DNA of 64,000 bases, from assembly GCA_963555995.3 (NCBI GenBank), contig OY821641.1, positions 2,174,867-2,238,866 on the forward strand, given 5' to 3'. The position numbers and the translations under genes were made by a program. Shown here piece by piece: positions 1 to 60,111 of the stretch. The stretch's first letter is position 1; every line of letters begins with the position of its first letter. Source of the DNA: Vicinamibacteria bacterium. Lineage in GTDB: Bacteria; Acidobacteriota; Vicinamibacteria; Marinacidobacterales; Marinacidobacteraceae. The notes below the pieces were generated by a model that ran no database searches, was not told the DNA's origin, and was given only the letters and a program-made list of their open reading frames with translations.

Positions 1-782
1 TTGTACCACTCGCGGATCTTCGTGCGGTCGAGTCCCGGAAGCTCCGGGGCGAACACCGTGTCGAGGTCCGAGTCGGTGTAGCCGCAGATCGCCGAGAACG
101 GCTCGTCCACCGTGAGGTCAATCAGGTTGTTGAGCCCGGAGAACAGGCTGACCTTGGAGAACTTGCTGACCCCGGTGAGGAAGCTGAAGCGGAGGTGAGC
201 GTCCGCCTCCTTGACGACGCCGTAGAGCCCGCGCAGGAAGTCCCGGTTCTTCCGCGCTGTCTCGCGTCCCGCCGGGCTGCCGTTCTCGTCCGGAGGCCCC
301 GAGAACAGCGCGTCGAGGATCGGCTTGTCGTACTCGTCCACCAGCAGCGCCCCCCGCTGCCCGGTCCGCTCGTGCAGTTCACGAAGCAGCCGGTGCAACC
401 GCAACGGCGGTGCGAGGGACTCCGGCGCGATCCCCGCCTCCTTCTCGGCATCCTCCAATTGGGTGGAGACCGCTTCCGCCAGGTAGCCCTGTTCCCGGTA
501 GTTCCCGCTGCCGAAGCTGAGGCGCACCACCGGATGGCGCACCGACCAGTCCCAGCAGTCGTGGATCGCGAGGCCCCGGAAGAGCGGCTCGTTTCCCTCG
601 AACAGCTCCTTCATCGTGTCGAGCAGCAGGCTCTTGCCGAACCGCCGGGGGCGCGACAGGAAGTAGTGGCTTCCCCCTTCCACCAGCCGCCCGATCCAGC
701 GCGTCTTGTCCACGTAGTAGGAGTCCGTCTCCCGGATCTTCCGGAAGGTCTGGATACCGATGGGAAGTTGCCGCCGCCGCAC
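1..782 (-). CDS. AAA-ATPase-like protein (PF09820-type N-terminal domain), 3'-partial at window edge
   Basis: Own minus-strand translation from GTG (782-780), with an in-frame TAA two codons further upstream: MRRRQLPIGIQTFRKIRETDSYYVDKTRWIGRLVEGGSHYFLSRPRRFGKSLLLDTMKELF... The frame stays open to position 1, so it is absent from the ORF track (no stop in window). The motif block is typical of 'predicted AAA-ATPase' proteins that usually carry a C-terminal PD-(D/E)XK domain, which is not visible here. Confidence 0.7.
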   Translation of the reverse strand, partial: MRRRQLPIGIQTFRKIRETDSYYVDKTRWIGRLVEGGSHYFLSRPRRFGKSLLLDTMKELFEGNEPLFRGLAIHDCWDWSVRHPVVRLSFGSGNYREQGYLAEAVSTQLEDAEKEAGIAPESLAPPLRLHRLLRELHERTGQRGALLVDEYDKPILDALFSGPPDENGSPAGRETARKNRDFLRGLYGVVKEADAHLRFSFLTGVSKFSKVSLFSGLNNLIDLTVDEPFSAICGYTDSDLDTVFAPELPGLDRTKIREWY

Positions 783-3681: not shown

Positions 3682-3794
3682 CGGGGATGGCCTGCACCGC
3701 AGAGTAGCAGCGGTCACACGGAGTGGCACGACCGCGTAAGTCGGCCGGTTCTTCCCGCCTGGAGGTCGGTGCTCGTATCCTTCAGCGGACTCCC

Positions 3795-4871
3795 ATGAGA
3801 ACTCCGGCCGGAAAGCGCGCGGCGGGGTTCATAGCGGTCACCCTCGCACTTCTGCTTCCCGGCGCCCCGGCGCCGGGGCAGGAGGCGTTCCGGCTCGGCG
3901 ACATCACGGCGGAACCCGGGCACGCCGTGTCCGGCCGCCTCGACGTCGCTCCCTCCGGCGGTGACGCGGGAACCTTCCTGCCCCTCACCGTCGTGCACGG
4001 GGCCCGTCCAGGCCCCGTGCTCACCCTGGTGGCGGGCATTCACGGCTCCGAATACGCGCCGATCCTGGCCATGCAGCGCCTGCGGCCGCTGCTGGACCCG
4101 GCGGAGATCACCGGGACGGTGGTCCTGGTCCACATGGCCAACCTGCCGGCGTTCCTGGGCCGGACGATCTACTTCAGCCCCGTCGACCGGAAGAACCTGA
4201 ACCGGGTGTTCCCGGGGAAGTCGGACGGCACCCTCAGCGAGCGCATCGCCTACGTCCTCACCGAGGAAGTCATCGCCCGCTCGGACTTCCTGATGGACAT
4301 CCACTCCGGAGACGGCAACGAGTGGCTCCGCCCCTCGTACACCGGCTACTACGCCGAGGCGGGGGGCGCCGAGGTGATCGAGAAGTCCCGGCGGATGGCC
4401 GTCGCGTTCGGCCTCGACCCCATCGTCGAGTTCAAGGGCGACCTGGACCCGAGCCGCGCGATCTGGTGCGGGGCCGCGGCGGTGGCGCGCGGCATCCCGT
4501 CCATCGACGTGGAGTCCGGCGAGATGGGCCTCATCGAGGACCGGACCATCGCTCCGATCGTGGACGGGGTGCTGAGCGTGATGCGCGATCTCGGGATGGC
4601 GCCGGGAGACTCCAACCCGACCGAGAACCCGCTGTTCATCCGGGAGCGCGCCTACGCGACCAGCGAACACGACGGCGTCTGGGAGCCGGATCCGCTGGTC
4701 AAGGCCGGCCAGTACGTCGCGAAGGGCGCCCGGCTGGGGCTGGTGCGGGACTTCCACGGCAACCCGCTCGCGGAGGTCCGGGCGCCGGCCGCCGGAATGA
4801 TGCTCATCCTGCTCGGGACCCCGCCGGTGAACCGCGGCGAGACGCTTGCGGTGATCGCCCAGGTGGAGTAA
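3795..4871 (+). CDS. Succinylglutamate desuccinylase/aspartoacylase-family (M14-like) zinc hydrolase, secreted
   Basis: GIHGSEYAPI...NLNRVFPG...MDIHSGD motifs. A signal peptide follows ATG 3795 (MRTPAGKRAAGFIAVTLALLLPGAPA). The track ORF starts at 3723. Confidence 0.8.
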   Translation: MRTPAGKRAAGFIAVTLALLLPGAPAPGQEAFRLGDITAEPGHAVSGRLDVAPSGGDAGTFLPLTVVHGARPGPVLTLVAGIHGSEYAPILAMQRLRPLLDPAEITGTVVLVHMANLPAFLGRTIYFSPVDRKNLNRVFPGKSDGTLSERIAYVLTEEVIARSDFLMDIHSGDGNEWLRPSYTGYYAEAGGAEVIEKSRRMAVAFGLDPIVEFKGDLDPSRAIWCGAAAVARGIPSIDVESGEMGLIEDRTIAPIVDGVLSVMRDLGMAPGDSNPTENPLFIRERAYATSEHDGVWEPDPLVKAGQYVAKGARLGLVRDFHGNPLAEVRAPAAGMMLILLGTPPVNRGETLAVIAQVE

Positions 4872-4925
4872 GCACGCGAACCCCCGCCGCGGCGGGCGCC
4901 CAAGGCGGATAGCGGTACGTGATCC

Positions 4926-6331
4926 GCGGGCCTCCGGCCCGCTGTGCTGGCTGAAACCGGCCCAGTTGCTGTGAAAATGCAGTCTCGCCAGTCCACCGAC
5001 CGCCGCAATGGCGCTGCCGGCTGGGAACGCCGGCTTCAGCCGGCACGAGCTGCGCGCCAGCGCAGCGCACGGCACGAAGCTGACCTGCACGATGGCGTTC
5101 GGCTCTCGATCCATCGCTGCGAACCGCGGCGGGACGTCCGCGAGCCTTCGGCTCGGTGTGCCGGCTGAAGCCGGCGCTCCAAGCCGTTTTCATGACCGGC
5201 GGGGTGCGCAGGAGGACCGGGCATGGGCGTTTGCTGTGAAAATGCAGTTTGGGCGAAAGCTCAACCAGCGTCCGTTGCGCCGCCGGCTGGGAGCGCCGGT
5301 CTTCAGACCGGCACGCGCTGCGCGGTAGCGCAGCGCACGGCGCCACGGCGAGCGGCGCGGTGGTGCTCTGCTCTCGGTTCATCATTGCAGACAGCGACAC
5401 GACATCTGCGGGCCTTCGGCCCGCTGTGCCGCTCTGAAGAGCGGCGCTCCCAGCCGTTCCCGCCGTTTTCATGCCCGGCGGGGTGTGCAGGAGGACCGGG
5501 CATGGGCGTTTGCTGTGAAAATGCAGTTTGGGCGAAAGCTCAACCAGCGTCCGTTGCGCCGCCGGCTGGGAGCGCCGGTCTTCAGACCGGCACGCGCTGC
5601 GCGGTAGCGCAGCGCACGGCGCCACGGCGAGCGGCGCGGTGGTGCTCTGCTCTCGGTTCATCATTGCAGACAGCGACACGACATCTGCGGGCCTTCGGCC
5701 CGCTGTGCCGCTCTGAAGAGCGGCGCTCCCAGCCGTTCCCGCCGTTTTCATGCCCGGCGGGGTGTGCAGGAGGACCGGGCATGGGCATTTGCTGTGAAAA
5801 TGCAGTTTGGGCGAAAGCTCAACCAGCGTCCGTTGCGCCGCCGGCTGGGAGCGCCGGTCTTCAGACCGGCACGCGCTGCGCGGTAGCGCAGCGCACGGCG
5901 CCACGGCGAGCGGCGCGGTGGTGCTCTGCTCTCGGTTCATCATTGCAGACAGCGACACGACATCTGCGGGCCTTCGGCCCGCTGTGCCGCTCTGAAGAGC
6001 GGCGCTCCCAGCCGTTCCCGCCGTTTTCATGCCCGGCGGGGTGTGCAGGAGGACCGGGCATGGGCATTTGCTGTGAAAATGCAGTTTGGGCGAAAGCTCA
6101 ACCAGCGTCCGTTGCGCCGCCGGCTGGGAGCGCCGGTCTTCAGACCGGCATGCGCGGTAGCGCAGCGCACGGCGCCACGGCGAGCGGCGCGGTGGTGCTC
6201 TGCTCTCGGTTCATCATTGCAGACAGCGACACGACATCTGCGGGCCTTCGGCCCGCTGTGCCGCTCTGAAGAGCGGCGCTCCCAGCCGTTCCCGCCGTTT
6301 TCATGCCCGGCGGGGTGTGCAGGAGGACCGA
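4926..6331 (+). repeat. Tandem array of 279-bp composite REP/MITE-like units: 4 near-identical copies, 1 diverged copy and a partial module
   Basis: The motif CATGGGC recurs at 5222, 5501, 5780 and 6059, an exact 279-bp period. Identical 62-aa track ORFs at 5249, 5528 and 5807 confirm the period. A diverged copy lies at about 4964-5221, with a partial module at 4926-4963. A REP-like tail (GCTCCAAGCCGGCGG) continues to about 6372. Confidence 0.9.
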
Positions 6332-6374
6332 TCATGACGGTTTCTCCCCGTGGGGGCTCCAAGCCGGCGGCGCC

Positions 6375-7712
6375 CTACTTCATCCGGCGGATGATCGGCA
6401 GTCCCCAGAAATAGAGCGCGGTGAGATCCACCCCCCGCGCGATGAGCGTGGCCCAGGACGCCGCGTAGACACCCACCATGTTCACCGGCTGGATCAGCAC
6501 CCAGAGGACGAACAGGACCGCCAGGGTCTCGATGAGGCCGGCCCAGGTGATGGCGCGGGTCTCGGTGCTCCAGACCAGCAGCGCCCGGTAGAAGGCAAGC
6601 AGCACCGAGAAGATCGGCATCGTCACCAGGATCTGGAGCGCCGGCACCGAAAGGTCCACCAGGTTCGGGGCGAGTCCCGCCACGTGCTGGAACCAGAGAC
6701 CGGAGAGCGGGGTGAGGGCCATGACGCCCTGCAGCACGCACGCCCCCGCCCCGAGGCCGAGGGCGAAGCGCACCAGCTTGTCGAACCGCTGGCGGCTTCC
6801 GTCCATGAAGGCGATGGCGACCTCCTGGAAGGAGAGGCCCATGCTCCGGAAGACGAAGGCGAGCGCCGCGACCACCGGGTAGGTCGCGAGCGATTCGAGG
6901 GCGAGGCGGGAATGCCCGAGGAACAGGTTGACCAGCGGGTGGATCGCGAGCGCGATCACCGAGCTGACCAGCAGCGGGATGTAGAAGTGGAGGATCTTCG
7001 GATTCGTCAGGGGCTCGCCGTTCCGGGGAGTCGCGAGCACCTCGCGCACGCAGTCGGCCACCATGAACCGGGTGGCGACCGCCTCGACCACCACCGCCAC
7101 CGAGAGCGCCGCCGCCCCGATGAGCGCGCCCGGTATCGAGGCGCCGAAGAGCAGCCAGGCGGTGACCGCCATCCCCGAGAGCCGGATGGTGGTCCCGTAG
7201 GCGATCCGGCGGGTGTGGCCGTGCCGCACGAGGAGCCCCTGGTAGAAGCGCCGGAAGCCGATGGCCGCCGGCCAGGGCAACAGCACCAGCAGGGCCTGCC
7301 GGCTCAGTTCGGCGACCTGCGCGTCGAGGCCCATCACCGTCTGGGCGACCCACGGATAGAGCGGCGACAAGGTCCAGACGAGCGTGAGCAGGGTCAGCCC
7401 CAGGTTCAGCGCCGCCCCGAAGCGGCGCAGCGAACGGAACGCCTCGCGGTCCTTGCAGAGCGCGGTGGAGGCGCTCAGCATCATGATGATCGGCGCCTCG
7501 AGGATCAGCGCGAAGGCGAAGGCGACCCCGAACGCCGCGAGGTTCACGGTCGCGTCGGGAAGCCGGGCTACCACCGCGGCCACCAACAGCCCTTCGACGG
7601 ACATCATGATCCAGGTGGCCGCCATCGGCAGCCACACCCAGAAGATCCGGCTGGTGGTGAGCGGCGCCCGCGGCGGGGCCGCCTCCGGGGTCTTCCCGAA
7701 CGTGGGGGTCAC
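6375..7712 (-). CDS. MOP/MATE-superfamily polytopic membrane transporter
   Basis: About 12 TM segments with MATE-like repeats. The start is proposed at GTG 7712, which gives a GTGA overlap with the hemW stop. The track ORF start at 7805 would overlap hemW by 96 nt. Confidence 0.6.
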   Translation of the reverse strand: MTPTFGKTPEAAPPRAPLTTSRIFWVWLPMAATWIMMSVEGLLVAAVVARLPDATVNLAAFGVAFAFALILEAPIIMMLSASTALCKDREAFRSLRRFGAALNLGLTLLTLVWTLSPLYPWVAQTVMGLDAQVAELSRQALLVLLPWPAAIGFRRFYQGLLVRHGHTRRIAYGTTIRLSGMAVTAWLLFGASIPGALIGAAALSVAVVVEAVATRFMVADCVREVLATPRNGEPLTNPKILHFYIPLLVSSVIALAIHPLVNLFLGHSRLALESLATYPVVAALAFVFRSMGLSFQEVAIAFMDGSRQRFDKLVRFALGLGAGACVLQGVMALTPLSGLWFQHVAGLAPNLVDLSVPALQILVTMPIFSVLLAFYRALLVWSTETRAITWAGLIETLAVLFVLWVLIQPVNMVGVYAASWATLIARGVDLTALYFWGLPIIRRMK

Positions 7713-8965
7713 GCGGCGTCCCGATCCGCGGTCAACGCGTCGAGATTCATCTCGCGGGCCAGCGCGTCGGCAACCGCCAACCCGTCGCGGGTCGGCCGGA
7801 GCCAACCCGTCATCTCGTCACCCCGGAGCTCGACGAGGCCCCGGGCCCGCCATTTCCCGAAGAGCCTCCGGTTCGCCCGCACCACCGCCTCGCCGTAGCG
7901 GGCGGAGAAGCCCCCGAGCGGGAGGCCATCCGTCGTGCGGAGGCGCAGGAACAACTCTTCGAGGGCGCGCTCGTGCGGACGCAGGGTTTCGCGTTCGGCC
8001 GTGGGTTCCTCTCCGCGAAGAATCGCTTCCTCCCAGTGTTCGAACGCCCGCCGGTTCCAGAACCGCTCCCCTCGTTCCGGCGCAAAGGAATGGGCGGATG
8101 GTCCGACTCCGAGGTACTCCACCAAACTCCAGTACTTCCGGTTGTGGCGCGAACGAAACTCGGGCGCCGGGGCGAAGTTGCACGCCTCATAGGCCGCAAA
8201 ACCGTGCTCCGCAAGGGTTTCGTGCACCGCCCGGAAGAGGGCGCTCCCGTCTCCGGAACGAGCGGTGAGGGTCTCCCCCCGCGCCCGGCGGCGTCCGAAG
8301 GGCGTTCCCGGCTCGATGGACAGCTCGTAGGCGGAGACGTGGTTCACCCCCGGCAACGCAACCAGGGCGCGGAGTTCTTCGCGCAGGGACTCCGGGGTCT
8401 GCCCCGCCGTACCGTAGATGAGATCAACCGAGATCCAGGGAATTCCAGCCTCGGCGAGCCGGGACACCGCGATCGCGGCATCCGACGCGTTGTGCGCGCG
8501 GCCGAGGAACCGCAGCCGGGACTCGTCGAGCGCCTGCACTCCGAGGCTGACGCCCCAAATCTCCTCGGCCGCCCACTGGCGGGCGCGTTCCGGGGCGTGG
8601 ACCAGATCCTCCGGGTTGGCCTCGAGGAAAAGGAACGGCGAGGGCGAAGCAAGGCCCCGCTCCACAGCCGCCGACGCCACCTCCCGGAAGAATCCGGCCG
8701 GCGCGAGCGAGGGGGTGCCGCCCCCGAAATAGACAGTGTCCGCCCCGAGCGCGGCAGCCCGGAGCTCCAACTCCGTCAGCAGCGCCTGCCGGTAGCGATC
8801 GAGGCGCTCCGATCCGGGACCCCCCAGTGGAGTCACGGCGAAATCGCAGTAGGGACAGATCCGCGAACAGAAGGGAACGTGAACGTAGAGCCCCGGAGCG
8901 GCCGGTTCCGGCGTCTCGGTGAATGGGTCAAGCGGAAGCGAGGTCGGATCCGGGCGCTCGGTCAC
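7709..8965 (-). CDS. hemW: Radical SAM heme chaperone HemW (oxygen-independent coproporphyrinogen oxidase-like)
   Basis: The radical-SAM CxxxCxxC motif is present in LYVHVPFCSRICPYCDF. The gene lies downstream of lepA, as in many bacteria. Start proposed at GTG 8965 (GTGA overlap with the lepA stop). Confidence 0.85.
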   Translation of the reverse strand: MTERPDPTSLPLDPFTETPEPAAPGLYVHVPFCSRICPYCDFAVTPLGGPGSERLDRYRQALLTELELRAAALGADTVYFGGGTPSLAPAGFFREVASAAVERGLASPSPFLFLEANPEDLVHAPERARQWAAEEIWGVSLGVQALDESRLRFLGRAHNASDAAIAVSRLAEAGIPWISVDLIYGTAGQTPESLREELRALVALPGVNHVSAYELSIEPGTPFGRRRARGETLTARSGDGSALFRAVHETLAEHGFAAYEACNFAPAPEFRSRHNRKYWSLVEYLGVGPSAHSFAPERGERFWNRRAFEHWEEAILRGEEPTAERETLRPHERALEELFLRLRTTDGLPLGGFSARYGEAVVRANRRLFGKWRARGLVELRGDEMTGWLRPTRDGLAVADALAREMNLDALTADRDAA

Positions 8966-10791: not shown

Positions 10792-12582
10792 TCAGGGACG
10801 AGCCGTGGGAACGAGGGTCACCTCGTGGCGTTCCCCGTCGCGGAGGAACACCACGGTGAGCGGCTCGCCGATGCGGGCGGCCTCCAGCGCGTTCATGTAG
10901 TCGTAGATGTTCAGGACCGGCGTTCCCGCGAACTCGACGATGACGTCGCCCTTCCGGAGCCCCGCCTCTTCGGCCGGCCCGCCCGCCATGACCCCGCCGA
11001 GCAGCAGTCCCTCGATCTCGGTGGCGTACTCGGGGATCGTCCCGGTGTAGGCGCGCAGCGAGACGCGCGAGGTCGCGGTCTCCGGGGCGCGCTCCACCTC
11101 GACGAACTCGGGGACCGGATCGCTCTCGGCCACCCGGCGGGCGACGAGGCCCGTGAAGCGGGCGATCCGGGCGAGGCCCTCGTAGTTCAGCTTGTCGGCG
11201 GTGTCGGACGGCCGGTGGTAGTCGGGGTGCGTCCCGGTGAAGAGGTTGAGGGTGGGCACGCTCTCGCTGTTGAACGCCGACGAGTCGGTGGGGAGGTAGG
11301 GGTCGTCGGAGAGCGCGAGGTCGAATCCCCCCGGCACGTTCGCCCGCTCGACGATGCCCGGCCAGACGCTCGACGAGCCCATCGCCTGGACGGTCAGCCG
11401 GTTCTCCTCGAGCCGCCCCACCATGTCGAGGTTGATGTAGGCCGCGAGCCGGTCCGGCCGGATGTCGTCCCGGACGAACGCGCGGGAACCGAGGAGGCCT
11501 GATTCCTCCCCGGACCAGAAGCCGACCAGCACCGGCCGGGCGAGGGGAGCGTCGGCAACGGTGCGCGCCAGCGCGAGCACCGCGGCGGTCCCCGACGCGT
11601 TGTCGTCGGCGCCGGGATGGACCGCCGGGGGAGCGTGGGGGTTCAGCGAGCCGCCGCCCCCCATCCCCAGGTGGTCGTAGTGGGCGCCCACCGCGACGTA
11701 GGGCGGATCGAGGCTGCCGTCCGCCGCCGGGAGGATCCCGACCACGTTCGCGCCGCTGGTGGGCGTCCGCTCGAGGTCCACGGCCAGGGTGGCGAACCCG
11801 GGCAGCGGGAAGGACCCGGCGTCCACCTCGCCCGCATCGAGCGATCGCTGCACCTCGGCGAGGGAGACCCCGGTCCCCGCGAAGAGCCGGTCGCCGGCCG
11901 CCCCGTCAATCGAGACGGCGAGGATGCCCTGGCTGCCCGGCGCCGCAATGTCGAAGGCATCGGGAGCCAGTTCCCCGGCCCCTTCGGACCCGGGACCGGT
12001 GATCACCACCATCCCGGCCGCCCCCTGGTCCCGCGCCGCTGACGCCTTGGACCGGAAGTCCGCGTGACGGTTCAGCACCGACCGCGTCTCGTCCTCCACA
12101 TCGTCCGGGAAGTAGCGGAGGACGACCACCACCTTGTCGCGGACCTCGTGGCCGGCGTAGCTGTCGTAGCGGACCCCGGCGCTCTCCGGAACCCGGATGC
12201 CGTAGCCGGCGAAATAGAGCTCTCCCCGCACCTCCCCGGTTTCCGAGAACGCGAACGCCTTCACCTGGTCGCTTCCGAAGCGCTTGTGGCCCCCGGCCCG
12301 CAGCGAGGACCCCCGGTCCTCCACTCCGGCTATGAAACGGAAGGGGATCCCGAGACCGTCCCGGCCGGGGAGGGGCCGGGCGCCGGCCGCCTCCAGCTCG
12401 GAAATCAGGTAGCGCCGCGCGGTCGCGGCTCCCGGCGTGCCCACCGCGCGCCCCTCGGTGCCCGGTCCGGTGAGCGCGAGGACATCGTCACGGAGTTCCT
12501 CGGGAGTCTGGGCCGCGGCGGGGAGCGCCAGCAACAGCGCGAGCGAACAACTGACCCCGGTGAGGGTCTGGCGGCGGTTCAT
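10792..12582 (-). CDS. Secreted M28-family aminopeptidase with C-terminal PDZ domain
   Basis: This is the C-terminal part of track ORF 10792..14307, starting at ATG 12582 (MNRRQTLTGVSCSLALLLALPAAAQ). HYDHLG, GADDNASG, EESGLLGS and NLDMVG are M28 metal-ligand blocks. The PDZ-like tail is GGPAEEAGLRKGDVIVEF. Confidence 0.85.
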   Translation of the reverse strand: MNRRQTLTGVSCSLALLLALPAAAQTPEELRDDVLALTGPGTEGRAVGTPGAATARRYLISELEAAGARPLPGRDGLGIPFRFIAGVEDRGSSLRAGGHKRFGSDQVKAFAFSETGEVRGELYFAGYGIRVPESAGVRYDSYAGHEVRDKVVVVLRYFPDDVEDETRSVLNRHADFRSKASAARDQGAAGMVVITGPGSEGAGELAPDAFDIAAPGSQGILAVSIDGAAGDRLFAGTGVSLAEVQRSLDAGEVDAGSFPLPGFATLAVDLERTPTSGANVVGILPAADGSLDPPYVAVGAHYDHLGMGGGGSLNPHAPPAVHPGADDNASGTAAVLALARTVADAPLARPVLVGFWSGEESGLLGSRAFVRDDIRPDRLAAYINLDMVGRLEENRLTVQAMGSSSVWPGIVERANVPGGFDLALSDDPYLPTDSSAFNSESVPTLNLFTGTHPDYHRPSDTADKLNYEGLARIARFTGLVARRVAESDPVPEFVEVERAPETATSRVSLRAYTGTIPEYATEIEGLLLGGVMAGGPAEEAGLRKGDVIVEFAGTPVLNIYDYMNALEAARIGEPLTVVFLRDGERHEVTLVPTARP

Positions 12583-13730
12583 CGGAAGGTCTCCGGGTGC
12601 CGGTTCCGGGATGGCGCGGAGCGAAGCGCGGCAAGCGCGGCCTCGTGATCCCAGTCGGCGAGGTAGATCTGGCCGCCTTCCCCGCCGTGGCGGGTGGAGG
12701 TCCAGGCGAGGCCCTCCCCGTCCGGGGTGGGGACCGGCAGCCCGTCGAAGCCGTCCGTGGTGGTGATCCGGACCGGCTCCTTCTCGCCGCCGACATCCAC
12801 CATGTACACCTCGAAGTTGCTGAATCCCAGCTTGTTCGAGGCGAACAGGACGTACTCGAGGGACGGATGGACATACGGCGCCCAGCTCATGGCCCTGAAG
12901 TCGGTAAGCTGGCGCTGGTCGCTCCCGTCCGGGTTCATGGACCAGACGTCCGCCACCAGCCCGTCTTCCGAGAAGCGCCGCCAGATGATCCGCGACCCGT
13001 CGGGGAAGTAGAACGGGCCGCCGTCGTAGCCGGGCACGTGGGTCAACCGCCGCTGCTCGCTGCCGTCGGCGCGCATGGTCCAGATCTCGCCGAAGTACGA
13101 CGGATCTATTTCGGCGAGACGGGTCTCCCGCTCCGTGAGTTCGTCCTCGAACATGCCCCGCATCGAGGTGAAGACGACCGACGCGCCGTCCGGCGACCAG
13201 CTCCCCTCGGCGTCGTAGCCCTGCGCGTCGGTGAGGCGAACGAGTTCGCCGTCCGAGCGCCGTTCCACGAAGACGTCCATGTGGGAGTCGTAATCCCACT
13301 CGTAGCGGCGCTCCTGGCCGCTCTCCCGGAACGCGATCTCTTCCCGCTGCAGCTCGAGCGAACGCGGGTCGAGGTGCGTCGAGGCGAACAGGATGTCCCC
13401 GTTCTTCCCCGAGATGAACGCGCAGGTGGTCTTGCCGCGCCCCGGAGACACGCGGCGCACGTCCCCCGTCTCCATGGACAGCAGGTAGATCTGGAAGAAG
13501 GGGTTCCCCGGCTCCCGCTCCGACTGGAAGACCATCTCCCGCCCGTCCGGGGAGAAGTACCCCTCCCCCGCGCGCTTTCCCTCCACGGTCAGGCGGCGGA
13601 TGCGGCTCAGGAACCGCGACTCGTCCTCGGCCCCCTGCGTCGCAAGAGCCGGAGCCAACAGACCCCCGCCCAGCGCAATTGGAAGTACGAACACGAGGCG
13701 GCCGGATACGCGCCGCAACGACTGGAACAT
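12579..13730 (-). CDS. Periplasmic PD40/TolB-like beta-propeller protein
   Basis: Repeated SPDG/NPDGS...F.S motifs (YFSPDGREMVFQS, WSPDGASVVFTS, MNPDGSDQRQLT). A signal peptide follows ATG 13730 (MFQSLRRVSGRLVFVLPIALGGG). An ATGA overlap links it to the M28 gene. Confidence 0.8.
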   Translation of the reverse strand: MFQSLRRVSGRLVFVLPIALGGGLLAPALATQGAEDESRFLSRIRRLTVEGKRAGEGYFSPDGREMVFQSEREPGNPFFQIYLLSMETGDVRRVSPGRGKTTCAFISGKNGDILFASTHLDPRSLELQREEIAFRESGQERRYEWDYDSHMDVFVERRSDGELVRLTDAQGYDAEGSWSPDGASVVFTSMRGMFEDELTERETRLAEIDPSYFGEIWTMRADGSEQRRLTHVPGYDGGPFYFPDGSRIIWRRFSEDGLVADVWSMNPDGSDQRQLTDFRAMSWAPYVHPSLEYVLFASNKLGFSNFEVYMVDVGGEKEPVRITTTDGFDGLPVPTPDGEGLAWTSTRHGGEGGQIYLADWDHEAALAALRSAPSRNRHPETFR

Positions 13731-13801
13731 GGGGAAACGAGGGCTGCGAACCGGCCGGTCGGTAACCGCTGATTGTACCCCGGAGGGTGGCGGCTGCCGC
13801 C

Positions 13802-13847
13802 GGGACCGCCGGTCTCCAGACCGGCATCGACCGCCGAGAGGCGGTCG
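13802..13847 (-). repeat. REP-like double-hairpin module (reverse orientation)
   Basis: CCGGTCTCCAGACCGG is followed by GACCGCC-GAGA-GGCGGTC. It shares the architecture of the other intergenic modules. Confidence 0.7.
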
Positions 13848-14020
13848 AAACCACACCTGCACCGAACCCCACAGCAGAAACCGGAGGGGAAGCCTCTGTT
13901 CCGGCGACGGGGTTGCGGCTTGGAGCCCCATCAAGGGGACAGGGACGGAATCCTCCACCGCCTCGGCGCTCCAGTGTCGCAACGTCCACCCGGCCCCGGT
14001 ATGTTTCGAGACCGTCCCTC

Positions 14021-14842
14021 ATGAATCTGCCCAACCCGTTTGTCAAACTTCGGGAACTCAGCCGGATACGGAGGGACATCGTCCGCGATCGGAAGAGGCT
14101 ACGCACCCAGATCCAGGCCATCGTCGGCGCTGCCGGGTTTCGGATCGGCAGTGCGCTTCCGGATCCTCTTGACCCGGATGGACTCCACATTCTCGAAGGT
14201 CTCGCCGCCGACACGCCGACGCACATCCTCCTCAAGGGCCTTTCTTCGTACGTCGGACACGACGAAGGAGAACTCCGGGACGCCCTGACGGCTCGCCTGG
14301 ATGACACCGGCCGCTTTCTTCTGAGCGACCAGCTACGGGCGTGGAAGTCGGCGATCCGCAGAGTCGCGACCTACGACGCTCGCATCGCCAAAGGCCTGTC
14401 CGAATTCGACGAGCCGCTCGACCTCCTGACGACGATTCCCGGAATCAGCCGCGAGGCGGCGTGCGCCATCTTGCTGGAACTGGGACCGGACATCCGAACC
14501 TTCGAGTCCAGCAGTCAGTGCGCGGCGTTTGCGGGCCTTGCCCCGGGCAGGAGAGGTGGCGGGAACCACGAGGAGCGTGGCGCCGGTCGCCGGCGTAGCC
14601 CCCCCTTGCGCGGGATCCTGATCGAATGCGCCGAGGCCGCCACCCTTGCGAGGGGGACCGAGTTCCGGCGCTACTACGAGACCGATCGGGATCGGAAAGG
14701 CCACCAGCACGCTCTGGTCGCCACCGCCAACAAGCTGGTCCGTGTCATCTACGGGGTTCTCAGCAACCGCGCCCCCTACCGCGATGCCCGGAGCGGGGAG
14801 ATGTCCATCCGGACAGATTCGGAGCCTCGCAGCGTCCCATAG
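14021..14842 (+). mobile_element. IS110-family transposase relic (5'-truncated: only the Transposase_20-like C-terminal part remains)
   Basis: LRELSRIRRDIVRDRKRLRTQIQ...LLTTIPGISREAACAILLELGPDIRTFESSSQCAAFAGLAPG...ALVATANKLVRVIYGVL matches the IS110-family C-terminal domain. No DEDD/RuvC-like N-terminal domain is found in any frame upstream (13600-14020). No inverted or terminal non-coding ends are recognisable. Confidence 0.75.
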
Positions 14843-14893
14843 CCGGCGTTCCTCGGCGCTCCAAGGCCCGCGGGGACTCCCTCCGAGCTCGGA

Positions 14894-16540: not shown

Positions 16541-16683
16541 CGGCGTCTTTCCCGGGGATTGGACCCCGTTTCGGCGCGGCGGGTGATGCGCGACGTCAAG
16601 GTCCGGGGGTCTTCCGAATGTAGCACCTTCCGGGTCGCCGGCGGGGTACGACTTGCGCGGCGCGCCGGCTCTCCTGCGCACCG

Positions 16684-17030
16684 CGCCGGTCATGAAGACG
16701 GCGGAACGGTTTGGAACGCCGGCTTCAGCCGGCACAGCGAGCCGAAGGCTCGCGGATGTCGTGCCGCTGTTCGCGGTGATGGACCGAGAGCCGACGCCAT
16801 CGCGTGGGGCAGCGTCGTGGCGTCCGCTGCGCTTCGCGCAGCGGGTGCCGGCTGAAGCCGGCGCTCCAAGCCGTTGCGCCAATGGGGTACCGTCATGCCG
16901 TCCGCTGCGCTCCGCGCAGCGAATGCCGGCTGAAGCCGGCGCTCCAAGCCGTTGCGCCAACGGGGCAGCGTCGTGCGATCCGCTGCGCTTCGCGCAGCGG
17001 GTGCCGGTCTGGAGACCGGCGTTCCAAGCG
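16684..17030. repeat. REP/MITE-like cluster: one reverse module plus three forward modules at a 78-bp period
   Basis: The reverse module lies at about 16707-16754. Forward modules start at 16824, 16902 and 16980 (CCGCTGCGC[TC]TCGCGCAGCG..TGCCGG.CTG[AG]AG.CCGGCG[CT]TCCAAGC). The last module ends at 17030, directly abutting the nhaC stop codon. Confidence 0.85.
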
Positions 17031-18443
17031 TCACGGCGTGGTCGTGTCGTTGTGGTTCTCCGACCTGCCGAGGCCCGTGGTGATCGCCACCAGGATCATG
17101 GCTAGGAGCGCCCATGAGTAGGCGTTCGCCAGCCCGGCTTCGAGGGCGGACACCCTCGGCACGCCGAACGCTTCACCGGAGGCGGTCGCCGAGGCCGCGA
17201 GGATGGTCGGAATGAAGAAAGGCAGGAGAAACGGGTAGGTGCAGACGGTCATGTCCAGCAGGTTCGCGCGCCGGAAGCGCCCCACGCCGGCGCGCCGGCC
17301 GGAATCCCGGACCAGGTCGCCGACCGCGAGGATGGCCATCACCGAATGCGTGGTCAGCATCACGGCGGCGCTCGTCATGGCAAAGATGCCGAACTCTGCC
17401 CCGCGCGCCGTCGGTGCAGCCCGCCAGGGGCCGCGCACGCCGGCCAACCGGTCCACGATACCCGCCTCCTGGGCCGCCCCCACGATCCCCATGAGGAGGA
17501 TGGTGAAGATCACGATCCCGACCGCGCCCTCCATCCCGTCCAGAATGAGGCCGCGGGCCTGGAAGGACCCGGCGTCAATGTGGAGCAGGCCGGCGGGGGT
17601 GACGAGCCCCAGCGCCAGAGCCAGCGCCACCGCGACGGCCACCCCGGCGAAGAGGCTCTCCACCAGGCCGCGCCCCCACCACAACATGAGAAACGCGGCC
17701 ACCGGCGCCAGCAACATGGGGAGCGCGGACGGGTCGCCCGCGAGCGCCGCGCCCGGGACCAGTTCCGTGGCCGGGGGCGCCTCGGCGCCGCCGAGCAGCA
17801 CAAGGATGAGAGCGGCCGCCAGGGCGGCGGGCAGTGCATAGCGGAGGCGGCTGCGCACGACCCCGCCCATGGGCGCGTCCTGGGTGGTCGCGGACGCGAT
17901 GGTCGTGTCCGAAACGGGCGAGACGTTGTCCCCGAAGGTGGCGCCGGCCAGGATCGCCCCGATCAACGCGACCGGGTTGGCCCCGAAGACGCCCGCCGCG
18001 GGGTAGAGCAGCGGCGCGCAGATGAGGATCGTCCCGAGGCTGGTGCCGGTCGCGGTCGAGAAGAGGACCGCGACGAGGAAGGCCAGCAGGACGAAGCCGC
18101 CGCCGCTCACCCCCAGTTCGGCGCCCGCCCACACCAGGGCGTGGACGAACCCGGATTCGCGCAGCACGGCCGAGAAGATGCCCGCCAGCAACCAGGCCGC
18201 CACCATGAGCATGACGATGGGGCGCGACATCCCGCGGAGAGCCGCCGCGCTGTAGTCGGAGGCCCTCCTGGCGAGCAGGAGGCCGGCGCCCAGCGCCACG
18301 ACCAGGACGGGCCACAGGCCGCGCTCGTCGGGTGCGCCGGAAAAGCCCAGCCAGGCGGCGCCGGCGGCGAAGACGAGGATCGGGAGCGCCGCTCCCGCAA
18401 GGCCCAGCCGGAAGGCGAGCGGCGGCTTTGGATGGTCGGCCAC
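17031..18443 (-). CDS. nhaC: Na+/H+ antiporter NhaC family
   Basis: Polytopic protein. FSTATGTSLGTILICAPLLYP...GATFGDNVSPVSDTTIASA is typical of NhaC. The start is uncertain. GVG 18443 (VADHPKPPLAF...) is preferred, because ATG 18521 would overlap the divergent gene start. Confidence 0.8.
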   Translation of the reverse strand: MADHPKPPLAFRLGLAGAALPILVFAAGAAWLGFSGAPDERGLWPVLVVALGAGLLLARRASDYSAAALRGMSRPIVMLMVAAWLLAGIFSAVLRESGFVHALVWAGAELGVSGGGFVLLAFLVAVLFSTATGTSLGTILICAPLLYPAAGVFGANPVALIGAILAGATFGDNVSPVSDTTIASATTQDAPMGGVVRSRLRYALPAALAAALILVLLGGAEAPPATELVPGAALAGDPSALPMLLAPVAAFLMLWWGRGLVESLFAGVAVAVALALALGLVTPAGLLHIDAGSFQARGLILDGMEGAVGIVIFTILLMGIVGAAQEAGIVDRLAGVRGPWRAAPTARGAEFGIFAMTSAAVMLTTHSVMAILAVGDLVRDSGRRAGVGRFRRANLLDMTVCTYPFLLPFFIPTILAASATASGEAFGVPRVSALEAGLANAYSWALLAMILVAITTGLGRSENHNDTTTP

Positions 18444-18515
18444 CCGGTTATGATCGGGGATCGTCGCCGGAGGGGCCAGCGGCGGCGCCCGGGCCGCTGC
18501 GAGGAGGGCAGGCAG

Positions 18516-18860
18516 ATGCATCAGGACGACAGGTTCGAGCTCTACGACCTGCGGGTGGAGGTGGTGGCCGGCGAGCGCCCGATGGTCTGCAACCACCGGG
18601 AAGGGGACTCCTTCGAACTCCGGGGCGAGAACCTGTCCTTCCCGGCGGGGCAGAGCTTCCCGCTCTACCCCCTGGCGGCGCTCCTGCCGCTGCTTCCGGC
18701 CAAGCAGCGCCGGACCCATCCCAACGACTGGATGACCTCCGACGCCGAGATCGCCTGTCCGGATCCCCACTGTGGCGCCCGCTTCCGCATCACCCGCACC
18801 GGCACCTCGGTCTTCCGCCACAGCGAGGTCACGCGCGTTCCCCTCACCCGGCCGCGGTGA
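18516..18860 (+). CDS. TIGR04076-family small Cys/His protein
   Basis: 114 aa from ATG 18516: MHQDDRFELYDLRVEVVAGERPMVCNHREGDSFEL...ACPDPHCGARFRITR. Recognised by eye from the C..H..GD.F ... CPD....F.I.R pattern. The longer track ORF (17346..) is antisense to nhaC. Confidence 0.6.
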   Translation: MHQDDRFELYDLRVEVVAGERPMVCNHREGDSFELRGENLSFPAGQSFPLYPLAALLPLLPAKQRRTHPNDWMTSDAEIACPDPHCGARFRITRTGTSVFRHSEVTRVPLTRPR

Positions 18861-23157: not shown

Positions 23158-23184
23158 CTTGTTCTTCCTTTGACAGCGATCGTC

Positions 23185-23440
23185 CGCCGGCAAACCCCGC
23201 CGGTCATGAAAGCGGCAGAAACGGCCTGGAGCGCCGGCTTCAGCCGGCACCGCGGGCCGAAGGCCCGCGGATGTCGTGCCGCTGTTCGCGGTCGTGGACC
23301 AGGAGCAGGGCGCCATCGCGGGGGCGGCGTCGTGCCGTCCGCTGCGCTTCGCGCAGCGGGTGCCGGCTGAAGCCGGCGCTCCAAGCCGGCGGCGTCGTCA
23401 CGACTGTTGGAGAACACGCGAGACTGCATTTTCACATCAG
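23185..23440 (-). repeat. Single copy of the ~260-280 bp composite REP/MITE-like element (opposite orientation to the 4926-6331 array)
   Basis: It contains CCGCCGGTCATGAAAGCGGCAGAAACGG, a reverse module (GGAGCGCCGGCTTCAGCCGGCAC CGCGGGCCGAAGGCCCGCG), a spacer, a forward module (GCTGCGCTTCGCGCAGC GGGTGCCGGCTGAAGCCGGCGCTCCAAGCCG) and ACTGCATTTTCACA, the reverse complement of the array motif TGTGAAAATGCAGT. Confidence 0.85.
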
Positions 23441-30030: not shown

Positions 30031-30157
30031 GCCGCGAATCTCATCGAACCGTCGGATGGACTCCTTCTACCGGCTACCAAAATGAATGTTGTCAACCTCG
30101 TCCCAAGTATAAGGCGGGCTTCCCGCCGCCTCGCTCGTCCTGCCCCCGGCGCGATCA

Positions 30158-30327
30158 GCTTGGAGCGCCGGCTTCAGCCGGCACGCACTGCGCAACAGCG
30201 CAGCGCCCGGCAAGACGCCGACCGGCGCGACGGCGCTCCCCGCTCGGTGCCGCGCCGCGAACAGCGACACGAAATCCGCGGGCCTTCGGCCCGCTGTGCC
30301 GCTCTGAAGAGCGGCGTTCCCAGCCGC
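30158..30327 (+). repeat. Composite REP element core (reverse module, spacer, forward module)
   Basis: CTTGGAGCGCCGGCTTCAGCCGGCAC GCACTGCGC..GCGCAGCGC ... GCGGGCCTTCGGCCCGC TGTGCCGCTCTGAAGAGCGGCGTTCCCAGCCG. The forward half is nearly identical to the array units. Confidence 0.85.
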
Positions 30328-30388
30328 TTTCGTCTGAGAAGAAGACGAGCCCCACGGCATACCCGGCTCGGAGCGACAACCGAAGCCT

Positions 30389-35854: not shown

Positions 35855-35973
35855 GCCGGCCCGCAGGGGCGGGAGTCCTGGCGTTGGTTCCGGGCCGGCG
35901 GGCGGAGCCGGTAGCCCGAGGGCCTGCTTCCTTCGGGGTGCGCGTCATCGAGGCTTGGAAGCGGTGGGAGTTT

Positions 35974-36022
35974 CGCCAGCCTCCGGCTGGCGGTGCCGGT
36001 CTGAAGACCGGCGCTCCTGCCG
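35974..36022 (+). repeat. REP-like double-hairpin module (forward)
   Basis: CGCCAGC-CTCCG-GCTGGCG followed by GTGCCGGTC-TGAA-GACCGGCGCTCC. Confidence 0.75.
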
Positions 36023-36062
36023 GCGCTCCCTGCCTCCTCGTGCGTAACATTCCCGGCGTTCC

Positions 36063-38875: not shown

Positions 38876-38916
38876 GGGCACAGCCCATCACGGACCGTCA
38901 GCGAAACGCGCTTTCC

Positions 38917-39148
38917 GGCCCCGCGGGCCGCGTGCCGGCCTGGAGGCCGGCGTTCCAAGCCGGTGCGTCACCCTGGAGGTCGGCGCTCCGGGCTGTAGCG
39001 TCATCCGGGAGGTCTGGAGACTGGTGGTCCAGGGCGTACGCGCTGCGAGGGTGGGTGGAGCTACGACGTGCGCGGCGCGGAGCGCCGCGCGTGCCGGTCT
39101 GGAGACCGGCGTTCCAAGCCGGTGCGTCGCCCTGGAGGTCGGCGCTCT
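38917..39148 (+). repeat. Pair of extended REP modules (57-bp direct repeats 159 bp apart)
   Basis: 38932-38988 and 39091-39147: GTGCCGG[C/T]CTGGAG[G/A]CCGGCGTTCCAAGCCGGTGCGTC[A/G]CCCTGGAGGTCGGCGCTC. Each is preceded by a different GC hairpin (CGGCCC-CGC-GGGCCG versus GCGCGGCGC-GGA-GCGCCGCGC). Confidence 0.85.
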
Positions 39149-55264: not shown

Positions 55265-56283
55265 CCACGACTCCGAAGAACGGAATGGGACGGCGCGAGG
55301 CGCTCCGGCGGATTTCCGCCGGAACCGGCGGGGCGGCCCTCGGCGCCGCCGGCGGCGCGGCGTTCGGGGCCGGCGCAGCGGGCGCGGCGTGCGCCCCGGC
55401 GGGCTCCGACGCAGCTTCGGACCCGGGCCACCAGTTCCGCTCGCTGCTCGCCGGCGGCGATCCGGTGATCTGCCCCGGAGCCTTCGACGTGATCTCGGCG
55501 CGGCTCATCGTGGACATGGGGTTCCAGACCCTTCTCCTCGGCGGCAGCGCCGGTTCGGCGGCGAACCTCGGCGTCCCCGACTACGGACTCGCCTCGATCA
55601 CCGAGCTGATCGAGATGGCCGCGCGGATCGCCGACAGCGTCCCGGTTCCCGTCTTCGCCGACGCCGACGACGGGGGCGGCAGCCCGCTCGCGGTGGCCCG
55701 GGCCATCCGCGGTTACGAACGCGCTGGCCTTGCGGCGGTGATGATCGAGGACCACGTGCAGGCGAAGCACCTCGGCGAAGGAGGCGTGCTGGTCGAGACC
55801 GGGACCATGCAGGACAAGCTCCGGGCCGCGGTGGACGCGCGGAAGGGCGGCATGATGATCGTCGCCCGCTGCGACGCCGTTTCCATCGGGCAGAGCGATG
55901 CGGAAGCGACGGAGCGGGGCGCCGCTTACGTCGAGGCCGGCGCCGACCTCCTCTTCTTCGCGGGGCTGCCTCCGGAGAGCATGGGGGCGGTCTCGGAGGC
56001 GTGCGGCCGACCGGTGATCGCGAGCGTCCACGACACCCCGATGGCGACGCTTCGGGAGAACAACGTGCCGCTCGTCCTCTACGCCGGACAGATGCTCCGG
56101 CTCGCCCTCGGCGCCATGCGCCAGGGGCTCCAGGACATCCACGACGGCGCCACCTGGCCCGGATACGCGGGCCGCGCGCTGCCGGGGGACATCTATCAGA
56201 ACCTGATCGAGTCGCCCCGGTGGCGCGAGGACGCCCGCCGCTACAACCTCGTGGACGAGAACGGCCGCCAAGTCAAAGGATAG
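55261..56283 (+). CDS. Isocitrate lyase/PEP mutase-superfamily protein with N-terminal Tat-like signal
   Basis: ATG 55261 overlaps the FGE-like stop (ATGA). ICPGAFDVISARL...VFADADDGGG...AVMIEDHV...IVARCDA...AGADLLF is ICL/PEPM-like. The N-terminus is MGRREALRRISAGTGGAALGAAGGAAFGAGAAGAAC. Confidence 0.8.
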   Translation: MTTTPKNGMGRREALRRISAGTGGAALGAAGGAAFGAGAAGAACAPAGSDAASDPGHQFRSLLAGGDPVICPGAFDVISARLIVDMGFQTLLLGGSAGSAANLGVPDYGLASITELIEMAARIADSVPVPVFADADDGGGSPLAVARAIRGYERAGLAAVMIEDHVQAKHLGEGGVLVETGTMQDKLRAAVDARKGGMMIVARCDAVSIGQSDAEATERGAAYVEAGADLLFFAGLPPESMGAVSEACGRPVIASVHDTPMATLRENNVPLVLYAGQMLRLALGAMRQGLQDIHDGATWPGYAGRALPGDIYQNLIESPRWREDARRYNLVDENGRQVKG

Positions 56284-56288
56284 GGAAC

Positions 56289-56336
56289 GCTTGGAACGCC
56301 GGTCTCCAGACCGGCACCGCGGCGCTCCGCGCCGCG
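56289..56336 (-). repeat. REP-like double-hairpin module (reverse)
   Basis: GCTTGGAACGCCGGTCTCCAGACCGGCAC CGCGGCGC-TCC-GCGCCGCG, starting 6 nt after the stop of the preceding gene. Confidence 0.8.
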
Positions 56337-56411
56337 CAAGGCCCACTACGCTTCGCCGTGCGTGATCCGCACAGTCAAGACCAACGACTCGGATAGACGC
56401 ACCGCTCTCCC

Positions 56412-60003: not shown

Positions 60004-60051
60004 GCGATTGCCGAAACCGGGGGTGTCCCGGCTTGGAGCGGGTTACGGCGG

Positions 60052-60102
60052 GCGCCGCGCGGAGCACCGCGCGTGCCGGTCTGGAGACCGGCGTTCCAAG
60101 CC
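60052..60102 (+). repeat. REP-like double-hairpin module (forward) between convergent genes
   Basis: CGCGCG-GAGCAC-CGCGCG followed by GTGCCGGTC-TGGA-GACCGGCGTTCCAAGCCG. Confidence 0.8.
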
Positions 60103-60111
60103 GTCGCGTCC

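Follow-up and report, generated by a model that had tools for sequence, protein, structure and literature searches.

Positions 4926-6331 of the stretch of 64,000 nucleotides analyzed here (henceforth the window; positions 2,174,867-2,238,866 of contig OY821641.1 in the Vicinamibacteria bacterium assembly GCA_963555995.3) hold a head-to-tail array of long, hairpin-rich repeats. We consider it likely that this array is a tandem cluster of a repeat of the repetitive extragenic palindrome (REP) or bacterial interspersed mosaic element (BIME) type, which was probably moved by a Y1 transposase and thereafter amplified locally. We accordingly favor the view that its repeat family is a new REP-like family of sponge- and coral-associated Acidobacteriota that belongs within a known class of elements rather than in a new category. 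The anatomy of the repeat, its non-coding status, its membership in a dispersed family, its lineage-specific gain and the recurrence of such arrays are established by the comparisons given below, in which the labels L001-L031 denote related or comparison loci and P0001-P0006 predicted proteins matching the open reading frames (ORFs) of the array.

Organization of the array

Tandem Repeats Finder reports a period of 279 bp over 5011-6330, with 4.8 copies, 94% matches and a score of 2241. The array, 1.4 kb in all, comprises four near-identical 279-bp units in head-to-tail orientation, preceded by a diverged fifth copy (4966-5221; 76% identity to the unit) and by a partial module at 4915-4974, to which the module covariance model R1, introduced below, gives 34.6 bits. 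When read from the heptamer CATGGGC, which lies at 5222, 5501, 5780 and 6059, the units at 5222 and 5501 are identical across 279 nt, and the third copy (5780) has a G>A change at base 8 as its sole difference. The fourth (6059) shares this change and has additionally lost exactly CGCGC after ...GACCGGCA, a loss which leaves the left stem GCGCTGCGC/GCGCAGCGC with 5 of its 9 bp. A first-pass annotation, made from the letters of the window, had already described the exact period, the heptamer positions, the differences between copies and the diverged and partial copies upstream, and all of these were borne out. The hairpins which it listed, an AT-richer motif (CTGTGAAAATGCAG) and a stem formed across unit junctions (CATGCCCGG...CCGGGCATG) are likewise present as described. 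The junction region shows no extra folding stability relative to shuffled sequence (z = -0.05); the whole unit folds better than its shuffles, with z = -5.9 and -6.4, one value per strand.

The double-hairpin module

The building block of the unit is a module of 55-65 nt, which was defined from many partial matches of 30-60 nt elsewhere in the window recovered by BLAST and repeat finding. It consists of a variable hairpin (HP1, for example GCTGCGC-TTCG-GCGCAGC, GCGGGCC-TTC-GGCCCGC or GCGGCGC-GGAG-CGCCGC), a nearly invariant second hairpin (HP2, GTGCCGG(YC)-TGAA/TGGA-(GR)CCGGC) and a conserved single-stranded tail (G(C/T)TCC(A/C)AGCC). In 18 copies from the window 94.1% of the stem cells are paired and 7 of the 15 pairs show changes on both sides; with 48 distinct copies from the window and its relatives these figures rise to 94.8% and 11 of 15. 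The observed covariation score was reached by none of 500 shuffles, and sliding the stem partners against each other lowers pairing to 30-50%. These compensatory changes mean that the hairpins are real and conserved as structure. As the stem cells that depart from Watson-Crick pairing comprise 16 G-T and 10 A-C combinations, the stems show no strand preference, which fits DNA palindromes and not an RNA made from one strand.

The covariance model R1 gives 25 strong matches in the window, 11 within the region of the array and 14 elsewhere; every one falls outside ORFs with a coding signature and is intergenic, between same-strand or convergent genes. Extrapolation from the window alone gives roughly 850 copies per 3.8-Mb genome. 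The family recurs at a similar density in related metagenome-assembled genomes (MAGs; L001, L004, L006, L007, L009, L023, L027, L030 and L031), and none was found in the non-acidobacterial loci retrieved by the same query. A scan of viral contigs with the HP2-plus-tail pattern gave no matches, a blastn search of PLSDB plasmids with the unit found none, and a metagenome scan with the pattern TGTGAAAATGCAGN{35,50}GGARCGCCGG returned two chance matches only (L028, with a GC content of 45%, and L029).

The array is non-coding. The GC content of the window is 70%, and its genes have a GC content of 0.85-0.95 at third codon positions (GC3) and of about 0.5 at second positions (GC2). The GC3 of the unit is 0.63-0.74 in every frame, which is to say that it lacks the codon bias of the genome. 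No Pfam domain passes for the two long ORFs over the array, and the 5-nt deletion in copy 4 shifts the reading frame. Among 5.8 billion proteins these ORFs match the array's own ORF, P0001, and five others, P0002-P0006. Three of the latter (P0002, P0004 and P0005) overlie other copies of the same DNA element on the three contigs retrieved, and for P0003 and P0006 the same origin was judged from the protein sequences; genuine protein homologs are absent from this collection. We therefore reject a protein-coding array in view of its composition, a deletion that shifts the frame and the absence of real homologs, and the non-coding status asserted in the first-pass annotation holds.

The composite unit and its subfamilies

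Each unit is an inverted heterodimer, in which an L-type module (minus strand), a conserved spacer of about 70 nt and an R-type module (plus strand) are enclosed by a conserved left arm, GCTGTGAAAATGCAG plus about 40 nt, and a conserved right arm ending in ...TTCATGCCCGGCGGGGTGTGCAGGAGGACCGGGCATGGGCGTTT. The HP1s of the L- and R-types are consistently different in all composites, and module pairs occur 150-156 bp apart at five sites. Single copies of the same heterodimer are found in the window at 16.7, 23.3 and 30.2 kb, and also in L027, L030 (twice) and L031. Mutual pairing of the unit's two modules is possible at 29 of 31 positions. In three composites, however, the HP2s of the two modules differ while each is locally perfect, and therefore the local hairpin is the conserved feature.

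The first of the dispersed copies (16665..17037, minus strand) is a composite with modules at 16701-16764 (-) and 16815-16879 (+), its match to the unit spanning 16665-16873 (-). Two more tandem modules adjoin it at 16893-16957 and 16971-17037 with a period of 78 bp, and Tandem Repeats Finder reports a second array of the window there (78 bp x 2.9, 16805-17029), made of whole modules beside the composite. The second, a near-full-length composite at 23182..23439 (minus strand), lies between two same-strand ABC-transport genes recognized by Pfam, aligns with unit positions 11-275 at 78% identity and has R1 matches at 23216 and 23330. The third is a core doublet without arms (30150..30332, plus strand; match 30158-30326). 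Altogether, the dispersed copies show 78-82% identity to the unit; the earlier claim that those at 16684, 23185 and 30158 are much more diverged than the arrayed ones is thus upheld, as is that of a recent local amplification, which the four near-identical units imply.

The core of the diverged copy in the array shares 80-81% identity with the dispersed copies at 16.7 and 23.3 kb, whose short HP2 stems it also has, and 73% with its own neighbors. For units 1-4 the identity is 94% with the single copy in L027 and 83-85% with those in L030 and L031. We accordingly distinguish a subfamily A, represented by the diverged copy, from a subfamily B, to which the four units belong. The A-B junction in the array is the same as the B-B junctions, such that two subfamilies stand head-to-tail in register. 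The point change follows the order G, G, A, A along the units, and this fits duplications of adjacent copies by one unit at a time.

Boundaries of the insert and the state of the site in relatives

The natural phase of the repeat emerges from comparison with the empty site of a relative. L006 presents the two flanks of the window joined with nothing between them; therefore the insert of the window is 4968-6343 and contains exactly five whole elements, all on the plus strand, which begin with GCTGTG (4968, 5233, 5512, 5791 and 6070) and the last of which ends in ...GTTT (6343). Copy 0 (4968..5232) is a complete 265-bp element of subfamily A, with the short HP2 stems GCCGGC and R1 matches at 5012-5077 (-) and 5129-5192 (+). 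Copy 1 (5233..5511) is a 279-bp unit of subfamily B with its L-type module at 5278-5345 (-) and its R-type module at 5397-5462 (+), the spacer measuring about 50 nt between model matches and about 70 nt between the inner stems. Copy 2 (5512..5790), identical to copy 1 in the CATGGGC phase, carries the G>A change at 5787 when read in the GCTGTG phase, and copy 3 (5791..6069) has the A variant again at 6066. Copy 4 (6070..6343) is 274 bp long, its 5-nt CGCGC deletion falling in the HP1 of the L-type module (6115-6177), and ends in a different right-end variant, ...GGACCGATCATGACGGTTT, which recurs in L023.

These five elements are seated within a resident module (4926..4961, plus strand), which retains an HP1 (GCGGGCC-TCC-GGCCCGC, 4926-4942) and a degenerate HP2 (GCTGGC-TGAA-ACCGGC, 4946-4961). 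Its tail, GCTCCAAGCCGG, was split off by the insert and now lies at 6356..6367 (plus strand), as judged from the module consensus, in which a canonical module reads ...GCCGGC|GCTCCAAGCCG, and from comparison with L006, where the orthologous module is intact (L006:11025-11081). The left boundary motif CCAGTT (4962..4967, plus strand) recurs directly to the left of GCTGTGAAAATG in independent copies (L027, L030b and L005), with unrelated DNA farther left, and the right boundary motif CTCCCCGTGGGG (6344..6355, plus strand) recurs past the right-end GTTT in L023 and L004. In L006 CCAGTT joins CTCCCGGTGGGG directly: the region reads ...HP1-GCCGGCTGAAGCCGGC-CCAGTT|CTCCCGGTGGGG-GCTCCAAGCCGG, with its upstream part ending ...GCCGGC CCAGTT. 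The right boundary motif is joined straight to CCAGTT in L021 as well as in L006. GTT(T) is common to the four types of junction, namely flank|element (CCAGTT|GCTGTG, also in L027, L030 and L005), element|flank (GTTT|CTCCC(C/G)GTGGGG, also in L023 and L004), element|element (CGTTT|GCTGTG) and flank|flank (L006, with the exact 22-mer in the more distant L021).

The convergent genes that border the array are about 20 bp apart in L001, L003 and L007, and 120 bp apart in L006, with a single module between them. As relatives hold about 20 bp or a single module there, the array represents a lineage-specific gain, and its boundaries are sharp. In this intergenic region L004 has other module types, L023 an element in reverse orientation (its contig stops about 70 bp past the element) and L005 a left arm and module interrupted by foreign DNA; in L002, from the complete relative OZ220713.1, other genes take up about 9.7 kb (11077-20766) between the two flanking genes. 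The suggestion that this intergenic site is a hotspot is consequently supported by the differing states in relatives. Isolate names among the relatives, such as SB0661/SB0668, RHO1 and Plut, suggest sponge and coral sources. The foreign DNA in L005 (about 11232-12071) is of lower GC content, splits HP2 of the module just past the left arm and reaches the contig end; it gave no Rfam match and no clear ORF.

Further arrays and linkage to a Y1 transposase gene

Arrays of modules are not confined to this site. P0003 (258 aa), from the 3.8-Mb contig to which the window belongs, is a translated second array with a period of 77 aa (231 bp) and about 3 copies. In one relative a module array is physically linked to a Y1 transposase gene: on L030 (ENA contig ERZ21830300:ctg622114l) positions 1-169 (minus strand) encode the start of a 235-aa gene with the precomputed Pfam label PF01797 (Y1_Tnp), and an 86-bp module array of 9.5 copies with 96% identity (271-1086) starts about 100 bp upstream of its start codon. 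The gene caller placed a 304-aa ORF over this array, and a (CGCTCCC) x 5.7 repeat lies beyond it (1080-1119). P0006, also from the 3.8-Mb contig, covers another element copy that follows a different short repeat.

Comparison with known repeat systems

The first-pass annotation could name no class that fits. This did not hold up, for the anatomy, with palindromes, inverted doublets and tandem clusters that include their flanks, matches that of REPs, BIMEs and REPINs, the last being REP doublets that form hairpins. REPs are extragenic palindromes of about 20-60 bp and BIMEs are REPs alternating in orientation (PMC3116915, PMC2817692). Tandem clusters of REPINs are ordered, include nearly identical flanks and adjoin genes for REP-associated tyrosine transposases (RAYTs) (PMC3116915). 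Within a locus the tandem copies of the BIME-2 type are well conserved, their number differs from strain to strain, and the RAYT TnpA-REP cuts single-stranded BIME DNA, with strand transfer that can assemble tandem BIMEs in vitro (PMC3333891).

The present family is most readily set beside BIME-2 of E. coli, which is likewise extragenic, has two palindrome types in alternating orientation with conserved linkers (Y and Z2 REPs; S and s/l/r linkers) and forms near-identical tandem copies within a locus, whose presence and number differ between relatives (PMC3333891, PMC2817692). The module cluster adjoining a Y1 transposase gene in L030 further recalls the pairing of BIME-2 with TnpA-REP. In contrast to BIME-2, the palindrome here is a double hairpin of 55-65 nt and not a single one of 35-40 nt, the unit measures 279 bp and not about 100 bp, a GTAG head is lacking, the host belongs to the Acidobacteriota and not the Gammaproteobacteria, and the cognate enzyme is putative. 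The REPINs of Pseudomonas fluorescens SBW25 are similarly units of inverted doublets, whose singlets look like decayed remnants, whose clusters lie beside RAYT genes and for which precise excision events are known (PMC3116915). However, the SBW25 doublets are homodimers of 71-110 bp with a largest reported cluster of four REPINs (about 700 bp), whereas here a heterodimer with arms of about 50 nt builds a 1.4-kb array that mixes two subfamilies in register.

Koribacter, Terriglobus, Acidobacterium and Granulicella belong to the class Acidobacteriia. Di Nocera et al. described RAYT-like genes, termed TIRYT, which are accompanied by long, sometimes double-palindromic repeats in dimers and clusters, and one sharply defined TIRYT group is specific to Acidobacteria (PMC3733652). 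The TIRYT/TIRtron-associated repeats of this group, known from the four genera just named, are long, partly double-palindromic and associated with a Y1 transposase (PMC3733652); set beside the present family by description only, they resemble it in lacking GTAG and in occurring as singles, dimers or clusters. They differ in having been described from the Acidobacteriia and with moderate copy numbers.

Insertion sequences (IS) of the IS200/IS605 family and their miniature derivatives move, on the IS608 model, by 'peel and paste': they have subterminal hairpins, produce no target-site duplication, insert 3' of a short conserved sequence and leave a seamless empty site. The present element shares the subterminal hairpins, the lack of a target-site duplication, a short conserved sequence at the left end and the seamless empty site. 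Unlike it, however, IS200/IS605 elements have end hairpins in direct orientation on the same strand, and the conservation of the right flank (CTCCCGGTGGGG) seen here is not expected of them.

A model for the origin of the array

We infer from the linkage in L030 and from the shared junctions that a Y1 enzyme moves these elements and that it has its cut site at GTT(T). In the proposed scheme a single-strand-specific Y1 (HUH) transposase of the RAYT or TIRYT type would recognize the hairpins in single-stranded DNA and cut alongside them, just 3' of GTT(T) as the boundaries suggest, and would then move or join units. An element of subfamily B would have inserted precisely at the right-hand end of a subfamily A element already resident there, which was itself situated within an older module. 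This B element would subsequently have been amplified unit by unit to four copies, either through the same enzyme or through slippage or unequal exchange, and the point change and the 5-nt deletion would have arisen in the course of amplification. We know of no in vivo demonstration that a RAYT-like enzyme builds BIME or REPIN arrays, the process having, to our knowledge, been reconstituted only in vitro and for E. coli. By analogy with REPs and BIMEs, roles for the host in mRNA 3'-end protection, termination, supercoiling or the provision of gyrase or integration host factor sites are possible, the more so given the position of the array between convergent genes.

Several observations weigh against this interpretation. 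The modules carry no conserved GTAG or CGTC tag, and thus depart from the classical definition of a REP; the invariant module columns are G, TGCCG, A, CGGCG, TCC and C (GTGCCG...GGCG.TCC), GTAG is confined to the L030 array, where it lies 12 nt before HP1, and CGTC precedes HP1 in some modules only. At 55-65 nt, the double-hairpin module is also longer than a classical REP of 20-40 nt. A tblastn search with an E. coli RayT query, which serves as a lead only, found no Y1 transposase in the 64-kb window or the other loci. The gene on L030 is visible as 56 N-terminal residues with one of its flanks, besides its precomputed Pfam label, and could be an ordinary TnpA of the IS200 type; no homolog was found for this N-terminus, and the fragment has no Pfam or NCBIfam match. 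The internal junctions of the array translated as P0003 carry a truncated L module, which fits ordinary unequal duplication better than insertion of whole elements. Finally, the precise presence or absence of sequence at GTT could equally reflect deletion, stimulated by a palindrome, between short repeats of GTT in the lineage of L006, and not insertion by an enzyme.

A stronger version of the transposition model, to which we would give perhaps one chance in a handful, holds that the unit is an active, self-targeting, transposon-like unit of single-stranded DNA. On this proposal independent elements of different subfamilies would stack in register (copy 0 of A, copies 1-4 of B) because the element's own GTT(T) right end would be a preferred target, and removal could be seamless, as the empty site of L006 suggests.

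Alternative explanations

Among the explanations that dispense with transposition of a REP-like repeat, an array of small structured RNA genes, or a long structured transcript acting as a protein sponge, a source of processed small RNAs or a 3'-UTR stabilizer, with the array multiplying the dose, fares best, although we regard it as unlikely. Strong compensatory covariation in both hairpins, conservation of the single-stranded tail and of the spacer of about 70 nt across subfamilies, the folding of the whole unit far beyond its shuffles (z about -6) and an AGGAGG about 8 nt ahead of an ATG in each right arm would all sit well with a transcript. Yet both strands fold equally, the stem mismatches (16 G-T against 10 A-C) show no strand preference, and modules occur in either orientation relative to neighboring genes. 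There were no Rfam matches at the gathering score in the window and five related loci, searches at E <= 10 giving noise only, and no sigma-70-like promoter or intrinsic terminator was found in 4700-6600. The pattern of presence and absence, together with the subfamily structure, is moreover typical of mobile DNA. Hence the tandem structured-RNA locus entertained in the first-pass annotation obtained no positive support from Rfam, promoters or terminators, G-U bias or module orientation.

The same annotation had proposed an amplified MITE, a miniature transposable element with inverted repeats. A classical MITE derived from an IS with a DDE transposase, inserted once and then duplicated in tandem by slippage, strikes us as slightly less probable than the RNA explanation. 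The 31-bp inverted repeat, complementary at 29 of its positions, the dispersed intergenic copies and the IS110-family remnant adjoining one module are features that such an origin would share. However, the inverted repeats are internal and not terminal, at about 55 nt from either end, the flanks (CCAGTT|...|CTCCCC) show no target-site duplication, and single modules and same-orientation arrays exist without partners. IS110 elements lack terminal inverted repeats, and the remnant represents an insertion into a module-bearing intergenic region and not a parent element. With internal inverted repeats and no target-site duplication, the array is not a classical MITE.

An integron-like array, from which a tyrosine recombinase would excise and into which it would insert circles at a GTT core, appears very improbable. 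The four junction types with their GTT core do resemble an attL/attR/attP/attB pattern, but the same junctions are expected from Y1 'peel and paste' or from microhomology deletion. The core sites of integrons have the consensus GTTRRRY; GTTTGCT, GTTGCTG and GTTCTCC do not match it, and no inverse core (RYYYAAC) was seen. About 14 ORFs of the window, which is annotated only in part, were scanned against Pfam and NCBIfam, and none is an integrase. The least credible explanation, a collapsed or expanded repeat of the assembly or else a real repeat-protein gene, could appeal to a period divisible by 3 and one open frame per strand across the units (ORFs of 348 and 408 aa), but is countered by the nested copy differences (one substitution, one 5-nt deletion) bounded by a diverged copy, the contig span of 3.8 Mb, comparable arrays in independent assemblies, the lack of a codon-position GC signal with a frame broken by the 5-nt deletion, and matches among 5.8 billion proteins that are limited to ORFs over other element copies, without any Pfam domain.

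Two further candidate identities were rejected: intrinsic terminators, owing to the lack of T tracts; and a CRISPR-like array, as there are no unique spacers. An integron attC array was likewise rejected on account of the core consensus.

Implications

The phenomenon of REPs, BIMEs and REPINs, which has been studied mainly in Proteobacteria, is extended here to marine host-associated Vicinamibacteria of the Acidobacteriota, with a module that is unusual for the class in being large, double-hairpinned and devoid of GTAG. Arrays of 0.8-1.4 kb give rise to orphan 'hypothetical proteins' in the output of gene callers (P0001-P0006), which matters for the annotation of MAGs, and may also break short-read assemblies, as at the contig end of L023 about 70 bp past the element. 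The GTT junction types and the in-register stacking of two subfamilies amount to a concrete prediction of the Y1 cut site. Should self-targeting prove true, filled, empty and tandem junctions would offer a natural read-out of RAYT-like mobilization and array building.

Flanking genes, single modules and minor features

The array lies between convergent genes, as had been stated at the outset. On its left is an AstE/AspA-type deacylase (3792..4871, plus strand, with the start at 3723 or 3792; PF24827, E = 4.6e-23; TIGR02994 weakly), whose stop codon TAA occupies 4869-4871 and whose orthologs show 88-94% amino acid identity in MAGs labeled Acidobacteria/Vicinamibacteria. On its right is a multi-pass membrane protein, weakly MATE-like (6375..7805, minus strand; stop codon 6375-6377), whose orthologs (93-95% identity) adjoin the AstE-like gene in L001, L003, L006 and L007. 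The contig from which the window derives is 3,796,715 bp long.

Single modules are found at 13791..13856 (minus strand; 56.8 bits with R1), with an ortholog in L001, L004, L006 and L007, at 35964..36029 (plus strand; 64.2 bits), at 38906-38968 and 39061-39127 (both plus strand; 62.6 and 79.5 bits), at 56281..56346 (minus strand; 71.6 bits) and at 60043..60109 (plus strand; 69.6 bits), the last of which fills the gap between convergent genes in the ORF map. Near 39 kb, a small tandem array of 33 bp x 2.3 (38939-39014) consists of a tail-like motif (CCTGGAGGTCGGCGCTCCAAGCCGGAGCGTCAC) without hairpins. Beside the module at 13791-13856 (-) lies a 5'-truncated transposase gene of the IS110 family (14021-14842, plus strand), which matches positions 122-342 of 343 of NF033542 as well as PF02371 and has lost the N-terminal DEDD domain. 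The orthologous region measures 36-289 bp in L001, L003, L004 and L006 and has no transposase remnant. The remnant looks like an IS110 insertion at a REP-like module; insertion of IS110 elements at REPs has been reported for other bacteria (PMC1525189).

A piece of 18-22 nt, CCAGTTCTCCCGGTGGGG(GCTCC), recurs at module boundaries (L006:11073-11089, L021:13045-13066, window 6340-6355, L004:476-492, L004:11184-11199 and L023:10510-10526), and may represent a target, a footprint or some mini-element. The 22-mer of L021 sits in a segment of about 150 bp between perfect 18-bp inverted repeats (AAGAGGCTGTGGACAAAC/GTTTGTCCACAGCCTCTT), and at about 18575-18595 of L006 a related 20-nt insert splits an HP2. 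In L027 a 54-bp x 8.8 array (4833-5302) with about 18 TCCGGTCGATA boxes abuts the left end of the single composite; this box does not occur in the window. The contig end of L007 (18546-18579) consists of a G run and then a C run straight after a module hairpin, and probably reflects an artefact of assembly or sequencing at the repeat. Three stretches of the window spaced 1385-1388 bp apart (31433-34289), with 64-71% mutual identity, probably represent paralogous minus-strand genes in tandem.

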